Positions 62,557 through 62,886 of a stretch of DNA of 64,000 nt are shown here, piece by piece; the stretch's first letter is position 1, and every line of letters starts with the position of its first letter. The stretch lies in NCBI RefSeq assembly GCF_022846255.1, contig NZ_AP025682.1, one strand, 5' to 3'. The stretch comes from Escherichia coli (GTDB taxonomy: Bacteria; Pseudomonadota; Gammaproteobacteria; Enterobacterales; Enterobacteriaceae). Both the position numbers and the translations under genes were made by a program. The notes beneath the pieces were generated by a model. That model was given only the letters and a program-made list of their open reading frames with translations, was not told the origin of the DNA and searched no databases.

Positions 62557-62886
62557 TGTAAATATTCTTCCGTTGTAAATGGCGCTGGAAAATTTCTCAT
62601 CAGTGAAACCTTCCGGAAGTTTCCCCCCCTTGTATGATGTATATCGCCAGTATTTTATTTCATCCCGGCTGTAATTTTTATATTCCCCGGCACGTGCAAT
62701 AACGCTGACCAGAGATATAAGGCTCATTAATAACTTTACAGGTAATTTCATAATTAAATTTCCAGTGAGTGAATTGACAGGTGAGGGGTAAAACTTTCTC
62801 TCAGGTAATATATATCTGAAAATATTTTCAATAACACCAGACAGGAAAAACACCACCACAGGCGGTGGCGTTTCTTTGGGGCGTCT

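Follow-up and report, generated by a model that had tools for sequence, protein, structure and literature searches.

What the open reading frame upstream of an Ivy-like gene represents is the question raised by a locus at the end of the 64,000-nt stretch of Escherichia coli DNA that we analysed (hereafter the window), where a CP4-44-type island lies. An earlier note on this DNA had described, on the minus strand, a frame that stays open for about 100 codons before the start codon giving the good signal peptide, with rare codons, a second signal-like segment and a run of seven G. It had proposed that the stretch could be an untranslated leader with its own promoter, a longer membrane-anchored isoform or a slippage-prone tract that switches expression.

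We confirmed the sequence features themselves. The open frame (62068..62859 (-)) encodes 263 aa, 101 codons of which precede the main ATG at 62556; MKLPVKLLMSLISLVSVIARA, the second signal-like segment, begins with an ATG at 62751; and the plus-strand C7 at 62623-62629 reads AAG GGG GGG (K-G-G) on the minus strand. Rare codons account for 10 of the 65 codons (15%) of the upstream stretch vs 3 of 162 (2%) in the main ORF. The GC content of the 5' stub that starts at 62751 is 39%, vs 49% for the main ORF. Mononucleotide shuffles kept the frame open in 9 of 20000 cases for 62557-62859 and in 144 of 20000 for 62557-62751, and the other two frames of the stretch contain 6 stops each. The upstream frame is open beyond chance.

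The first 36 codons (62752-62859) are not a gene, since they consist of the terminator hairpin of a patatin-like phospholipase gene, which overlaps the nominal GTG "start" of the 263-aa ORF, and of the intergenic DNA after the hairpin. A 227-aa or 263-aa protein with two signal-like segments results from longest-ORF logic applied to an in-frame junction.

On the minus strand, the locus is preceded by genes for a dynamin-family protein and an RdcB-family protein (both past the window end) and by the patatin-like phospholipase gene. It is followed by a 136-aa secreted-protein gene, a DUF932 gene, an antirestriction gene, yeeS, yeeT and cbeA/cbtA. We found the locus in about 2600 of 5426 complete E. 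coli genomes. Its features are listed below; L and P numbers designate the loci and proteins used for comparison.

62851..62867 (-): intrinsic-terminator-like hairpin of the patatin-like phospholipase gene, with a 7-pair stem (5 G-C pairs) followed by TTTTT
62752..62850 (-): intergenic DNA from the terminator to the relic ATG, aligned with L011, L017 and CFT073
62563..62751 (-): putative relic, codons 1-63 of a truncated 180-aa secreted-protein gene, with an ATG at 62751 and a weak Shine-Dalgarno sequence (-3.3 kcal/mol)
62689..62751 (-): putative ancestral signal peptide of the 180-aa protein (MKLPVKLLMSLISLVSVIARA), aligning with MKFIVKALICLAIMLSFTANA of intact proteins
62623..62629 (-): G7 homopolymer (AAG GGG GGG), derived from GGGGTGG, a +1/-1 mutational hot spot
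62557..62571 (-): putative deletion junction between the final codons of the relic, GGAAGAATA (Gly-Arg-Ile), and TTTACA, the 6 nt that natively precede the main ATG
62068..62556 (-): main gene, encoding a 162-aa periplasmic Ivy-like precursor with a signal peptide at residues 1-24, predicted cleavage at AEA/A and four conserved Cys
61642..62052 (-): gene for a 136-aa protein with a signal peptide, lying 15 nt past the main gene, with a strong AAGGAG ahead of it (Shine-Dalgarno duplex -8.7 kcal/mol)

Origin of the upstream reading frame

Residues 1-63 of the stub aligned without gaps with residues 1-63 of P0040, a member of a 180-aa protein family (BLASTP, 51% identity, E 1e-19), and identity to P0042 was 46%. 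The homology to this family breaks off at Gly-Arg-Ile, two codons before the main ATG. In L011-L013, from other E. coli islands, an intact 180-aa gene, whose product begins MKFIVKALIYLAVMLSFTANAAEYKEYPQGEITYYKYLPRNGWTLPAGYTVEQFSSAIYKGQIRNNF, is found at this site, immediately behind the same patatin gene and its terminator. The terminator is constant across the four aligned loci save for one stem position (C to T in L017), and the block that follows it (~62812-62850) is near-identical between loci with the intact 180-aa gene and loci with the relic. As for the other side of the junction, a distance of 18 nt separates the end of a 128-aa gene from the Ivy-like ATG in L014-L016. The native sequence upstream of the Ivy-like gene in L014 is GGAGAATTTACAATG, and its ribosome-binding site, GGAG, is partly replaced at the junction.

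A truncated relic is recognised by 5' homology that ends abruptly, by its location at the position of an intact gene, and by relaxed selection with disabling alleles, and we found all of these in the stub. Based on these findings, we consider it very likely that the leader is a 63-codon pseudogene stub of a deleted secreted-protein gene, joined in frame by accident to the Ivy-like gene. The ancestral order would have been the patatin-like gene, then the 180-aa, 128-aa, 160-162-aa Ivy-like and 136-aa genes. A deletion of ~0.7-0.8 kb would have taken codons 64-180 of the 180-aa gene and the entire 128-aa gene, with its breakpoint 6 nt upstream of the Ivy-like ATG and the reading frame kept by chance. 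Such a history would account for the open frame by the coding origin of the relic, for the second signal-like segment as the signal peptide of the lost 180-aa protein, and for the rare codons and low GC content by the composition of the 180-aa gene and its decay.

Deletions in the CP4-type integrative islands of E. coli leave gene remnants and in-frame fusion pseudogenes. Like these remnants, the stub still has its start codon and signal peptide, is decaying through nonsense and frameshift changes, and lies in a segment whose gene content varies between strains; unlike the typical ones, its breakpoint is in frame and 6 nt from the next ATG.

We did not observe any intact parent allele with more than 51% identity to the stub. 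A search with the stub peptide returned only fragments or frameshift products of 50-111 aa, and one with the 180-aa protein returned five proteins, none of them nearer to the stub. Because no closer intact parent allele was found, the breakpoint is placed only within a few bases. Global DNA alignment of the window leader with L011 was uninformative past ~62800, the alleles being too diverged, and protein alignment was used instead. The junction sequence had no match among species-representative genomes in a search beyond E. coli. Furthermore, the 180-aa parent protein had no match in Pfam, and the 227-aa protein that starts at 62751 had none in Pfam or NCBIfam. In L011 (2140-2500), the 128-aa gene, located between the intact 180-aa gene and the Ivy-like gene, is a frameshifted remnant of which the C-terminal 49 residues can still be recognised; the cassette has thus decayed a second time, independently.

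Selection on the stub, start site and the Ivy-like product

We compared 12 distinct stub alleles from 31 loci in E. coli genomes and metagenome contigs. Among their 26 SNP variants, 4 are synonymous and 22 non-synonymous, including W35stop in L017 and L018, a pattern that fits the neutral expectation of 21% synonymous changes (binomial p 0.63). There are also five indel alleles. The main ORF differs from the stub in this respect (22 synonymous and 14 non-synonymous changes between the window and CFT073; Fisher p 6e-4), with a dN/dS of 0.14-0.22 in seven comparisons. These data show that the stub evolves without amino-acid constraint. Moreover, the main ORF is intact, at 160-162 aa, in the loci with G8, G6 or G9 stubs (L003, L004, L006, L019, L024 and L039-L041) as well as in those with TGA-stopped stubs (L017 and L018). 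In the L017 stub, the hydrophobic core of the first signal peptide is also interrupted by an Arg.

The homologues of the 227-aa product are either 223-227 aa long, with a near-identical extension, or 160-161 aa long, the latter (eight proteins) starting exactly at MKRL. In the remote homologues retrieved by an exhaustive search (25-36% identity; those of 147-158 aa at 25-30%), the protein's own N-terminal signal peptide aligns with the N-terminus of the main ORF, which opens with MKRLHTLMLFLAVLFTGFNFNAEA. The N-terminal extension was absent in every homologue outside this fusion. Alignment of the family thus showed 62556 to be the conserved start, as far as homology indicates. We infer that the functional product is the 162-aa precursor from 62556, exported by Sec, cleaved after AEA and acting as a periplasmic Ivy-type inhibitor.

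The designation of the main gene as Ivy-like is supported. The window protein itself had no match in Pfam, while 13 of the 21 aligned family members match PF08816 (Pfam Ivy) at E<=0.001. A family profile searched against the PDB retrieved only Ivy chains (E 7e-8 to 5e-7), and the top 8 Foldseek matches of the AlphaFold model (pLDDT 72) are all Ivy, with probability 1.0 and TM 0.46-0.67. By these profile and model comparisons, the label would hold at the superfamily level. Like Ivy (PF08816; PDB 1GPQ, 1XS0, 1UUZ and 4PS6), the protein is a periplasmic Sec precursor with a predicted Ivy fold and a C-x4-C loop. Unlike Ivy, it lies below Pfam detection, has an extra N-terminal Cys pair and carries, at the position of Ivy's CKPHDC, a CKANTC loop that keeps the two Cys and the Lys and lacks the His. 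This His is found in Ivy and in most relatives (CEAHNC, CKAHAC). This predicted inhibitory loop varies between alleles (CKANTC, CKANAC, CKAHAC, CKSNAC and CKSDAC) and reads CEAHNC in remote relatives.

The DNA of the stub is far less diverged than the synonymous sites of the main ORF: the window and CFT073 differ at 5 of 195 nt (2.6%) of the stub vs a main-ORF pS of 0.20, and the window and L017 at 15 of 195 nt (7.7%) vs 0.52. We read this low divergence as the trace of a single recent fusion, followed by recombination that swapped the downstream gene for old alleles, and not as constraint on the stub. The pattern suggests that the recombined segment has its boundary at the main ATG or close to it. 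A comparison of L007, L011, L014, L015 and L017 found the stub and the end of the patatin gene to be ~92-100% identical across these loci, while their Ivy-like alleles are deeply diverged (pS 0.20-0.71).

The mRNA probably includes the stub in its 5' part. Weak translation from 62751 may occur, and we would expect the resulting peptide to be without function. In a read-through fusion, the real signal peptide would be buried as an internal hydrophobic segment and would probably act as a stop-transfer anchor; by the rules of Sec topology, the Cys-containing domain would then stay cytoplasmic.

The G run and the expression of the Ivy-like gene

Members of the parent family have Asn-Gly-Trp at the position of the tract, with the Trp conserved in P0039, P0040 and P0042, and the alleles L005, L017, L036 and L037 still read GGGGTGG or GAGGTGG (G43W). 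Comparison of these alleles showed the G7 of the window to be a derived state, which would have arisen by a T-to-G change in the Trp codon of a GGGGTGG ancestor. The CFT073-type G8 is a further A-to-G change. Interrupted alleles persist as GGGGTGG, GTGGGGG and GAGGTGG.

We counted tract alleles by exact 70-72-nt queries against the 5426 complete genomes. The control was a C7 in core intergenic DNA (49013-49019 (+)), which sits between ORFs ending at 48971 and starting at 49232; the counts need identical flanks.

Window-type tract: G7 in 1265 genomes, G8 in 42, G6 in 26
CFT073-type tract: G8 in 790 genomes, G7 in at most 16, G9 in at most 7
Control: C7 in 4085 genomes, C8 in 2, C6 in 48

The tract is off-length in 68 of 1333 window-type genomes (5.1%) vs 50 of 4135 (1.2%) at the control (Fisher p 1e-14), the C6 of the control being either a clonal polymorphism or an assembly error. 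Counting only +1 changes gives 42 at the window-type tract vs 2 at the control. Across tract types, ~3-5% of genomes are off-length, and the in-frame length is kept in ~90% of the stub-bearing complete genomes (1265 + 790 of ~2284). Length also differs within O111:H8 (G8 in strain 8E, G7 in strain 05-3004) and within O157:H7 (G6 in strain Z570, G7 in the others), where single-isolate differences may be assembly errors. G8 accompanies at least three different patatin protein alleles, and 2 of 14 CFT073-type loci in metagenome assemblies are off-length. An invariant G7 across strains, which the earlier note had counted among the marks of a plain untranslated leader, is therefore not what the genomes contain. 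In terms of reading frame, G7 reads through in frame into the main gene. With G8 the upstream ORF has 50 aa and its stop lies 43 nt short of the main ATG, and with G6 or G9 it has 65-66 aa and its TGA overlaps the main ATG as ATGA. We interpret the G7 run as a neutral by-product whose rate of slippage would be that of any run of 7-8 G under no constraint.

Regarding expression, the Shine-Dalgarno duplex at 62751 (-3.3 kcal/mol) compares with -8.8 kcal/mol for the intact 180-aa gene, and the one at 62556 (-3.5 kcal/mol, 11-nt spacing) with values of -5.7 to -8.2 kcal/mol where the main gene is unfused. By these predicted duplex energies, the deletion would have weakened the ribosome-binding site of the main gene. 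Ancestrally, the main gene was part of an operon and lacked a promoter of its own. Because of this operon position and of the near-invariant block after the terminator, transcription would most likely start upstream of the stub or result from read-through of the terminator; a promoter within 62752..62850 is possible. A consensus scan did not find any sigma-70 promoter on the minus strand in the leader, and inspection by eye gave sub-optimal spacings only. The proposal of an untranslated leader with its own promoter thus stands in part: the stretch does lie outside the conserved functional protein, but no promoter was found, and the stretch is the stub of a deleted gene that keeps its start codon. 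We did not obtain any Rfam match for 61500-64000 at E<=1, and the RNA fold of 62530-62850 is no better than that of shuffled sequences (z -1.7; 6 of 100 shuffles as good). The minimum-free-energy structure pairs the G run and the AAACU after it (62618-62631) with GUUUUACCCCUC upstream of the stub ATG (62780-62795). Since the overall fold is not significant, this pairing of the G run with GUUUUACCCCUC is probably coincidental.

These data bear on three alternatives to an accidental fusion. Homopolymer contingency loci of Neisseria, Haemophilus and Campylobacter undergo phase variation by changes in poly-G/C length, and slippage of the G run could likewise toggle the upstream frame between its three states and so tune the Ivy-like gene. 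The excess of off-length tracts over the control, the length differences within the two serotypes, the occurrence of G8 beside several patatin alleles and of off-length alleles in metagenome assemblies would all fit such a switch, as would the reality of the three frame states, of which the ATGA overlap of G6 and G9 could couple translation. Like a contingency locus, this one has a G run in the 5' part of an open frame and +1/-1 variants among isolates. Unlike one, its tract has only 7-8 G, derives from a relic by point mutation, is interrupted in other alleles so that an uninterrupted run is not conserved, and has one length in ~95% of genomes. A further difference is the independent downstream start: a frame change at a contingency locus toggles the functional product, whereas here the conserved start comes after the tract, and all shifted loci that we read retain an intact main ORF. 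A neutral site compared with a possibly constrained one would also give the observed excess over the control, and some single-isolate differences may be long-read homopolymer errors. Upstream ORFs can be coupled to a downstream start through an ATGA overlap in bacterial translation, and the stub TGA overlaps the main ATG in this way in the G6 and G9 alleles; unlike in coupled pairs, the overlap is a minority frameshift state and not the standard arrangement, with no sign of selection for it. We therefore retain the slippage part of the earlier proposal, as the length varies more than at the control, but not the evolved switch, which we regard as very improbable. A fusion co-opted after the event, in which slippage gives heritable and reversible three-state control of the periplasmic inhibitor, is in our view a long shot. 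If true, a pseudogene would have given rise to a contingency locus, one of whose states, in-frame read-through, hides the real signal peptide. E. coli seldom shows repeat-based phase variation, and a real switch here would be a rare example of repeat-mediated control in this species.

The two other alternatives concern the stub as a whole. A functional 227-aa isoform from 62751, with the first signal peptide cleaved and the second hydrophobic segment serving as membrane anchor, would agree with a frame open far past chance, with an upstream ATG and signal peptide that are intact in most alleles, with the weak ribosome-binding site at the main start and with the choice of the long form by PGAP (WP_000775500.1). 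However, the coding origin of the stub explains the open frame, the ratio of 4 synonymous to 22 non-synonymous changes and the stop and frameshift alleles with intact main ORFs speak against constraint, homologues outside the fusion have no extension, and the first signal peptide of L017 is disrupted by the Arg in its core. A stop-transfer second segment would, in addition, leave the Cys-rich domain in the cytoplasm. The membrane-anchored isoform suggested earlier thus finds little room as a functional protein, and we give it a very small chance. A relic origin is compatible with a stub later kept as a regulatory 5' UTR or upstream ORF, which would carry the promoter region of the operon and modulate translation of the main gene. 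The low divergence of the stub, the near-invariant block right after the terminator and an ancestrally promoterless main gene, which would now be transcribed from upstream of the stub, are in line with such a role. On the other hand, a single recent fusion with later recombination downstream explains the low divergence equally well, no Rfam match, no consensus promoter on the minus strand and no fold better than shuffled was found, and strain PC6 keeps the main ORF although IS1 has replaced all sequence upstream of ~62640. We hold a co-opted regulatory leader to be rather unlikely.

Because the ribosome-binding site of the main gene is weakened, we keep the long-isoform and co-option readings above zero; translation from the upstream ATG could contribute more than we assume under the preferred reading, an accidental fusion to a pseudogene stub. 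Likewise, an in-frame tract length in ~90% of genomes fits a recent origin of this fusion, but selection for the fusion would produce the same. On balance, neither a functional long isoform nor an evolved switch is likely.

Annotation and neighbouring genes

The main consequence of this ordinary decaying relic is a misleading genome annotation. Since the breakpoint is in frame and 6 nt from the ATG, annotation pipelines treat stub and gene as a single 227-aa protein. In RefSeq, the long form from 62751 is the 227-aa hypothetical protein WP_000775500.1, which together with WP_001362823.1 (225 aa) is carried by ~2000 complete E. coli genomes. Both entries are probably over-extended by 65 residues of a dead neighbouring gene, and predictions of signal peptide and localisation made on the long form would be wrong. 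Furthermore, we confirmed in six RefSeq genomes that PGAP calls a "frameshifted" pseudogene although the Ivy-like gene is intact. The tract counts suggest such calls, caused by slips in the stub, in roughly 90 genomes of the collection, and they are probably wrong at this locus. More generally, the case illustrates that what looks like a dual-signal protein or a contingency locus can stem from an in-frame deletion. We did not find any mention of the RefSeq protein accessions of the locus in the literature searched.

The 136-aa gene is probably co-transcribed with the Ivy-like main gene, and the pair is also present in L014-L018. Its product had no significant match in Pfam (best E 0.32) and only a sub-threshold one in NCBIfam (15 bits, cut-off 40). 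In L014 (1000-2803) and L015 (1098-4366), the Ivy-like gene is found within a tight row of small genes, most of which open with a signal peptide: one or two YfjT-family genes, followed by genes for proteins of 128, 160 (Ivy-like), 136, 129 and 158 aa. This row, which in L015 adjoins a gene for an SMC_N/AAA_15 protein, looks like a variable cassette of periplasmic proteins.

Just upstream of the locus, the dynamin-family, RdcB/YjcZ-family and patatin-like phospholipase genes form a conserved trio (62887-63957 (-) and past the window end; L001 1-3114). No PADLOC defence model matched the RdcB-family protein, and the patatin protein had only weak matches to phospholipase effectors in PADLOC (E 4e-5). 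In strain PC6 (L010 748-1600), the element that replaces the upstream sequence is IS1B; the 5' half of the stub and the patatin, RdcB and dynamin genes are gone, and both the Ivy-like and the 136-aa genes are intact.

Finally, a short fragment after the patatin gene in L009 (1653-1775) is annotated as "DNA polymerase III subunit gamma/tau". P0014, a 160-aa Ivy-like homologue, apparently bears the same name in UniRef, displayed in shortened form as "DNA polymer". Both names look like propagated misnomers.
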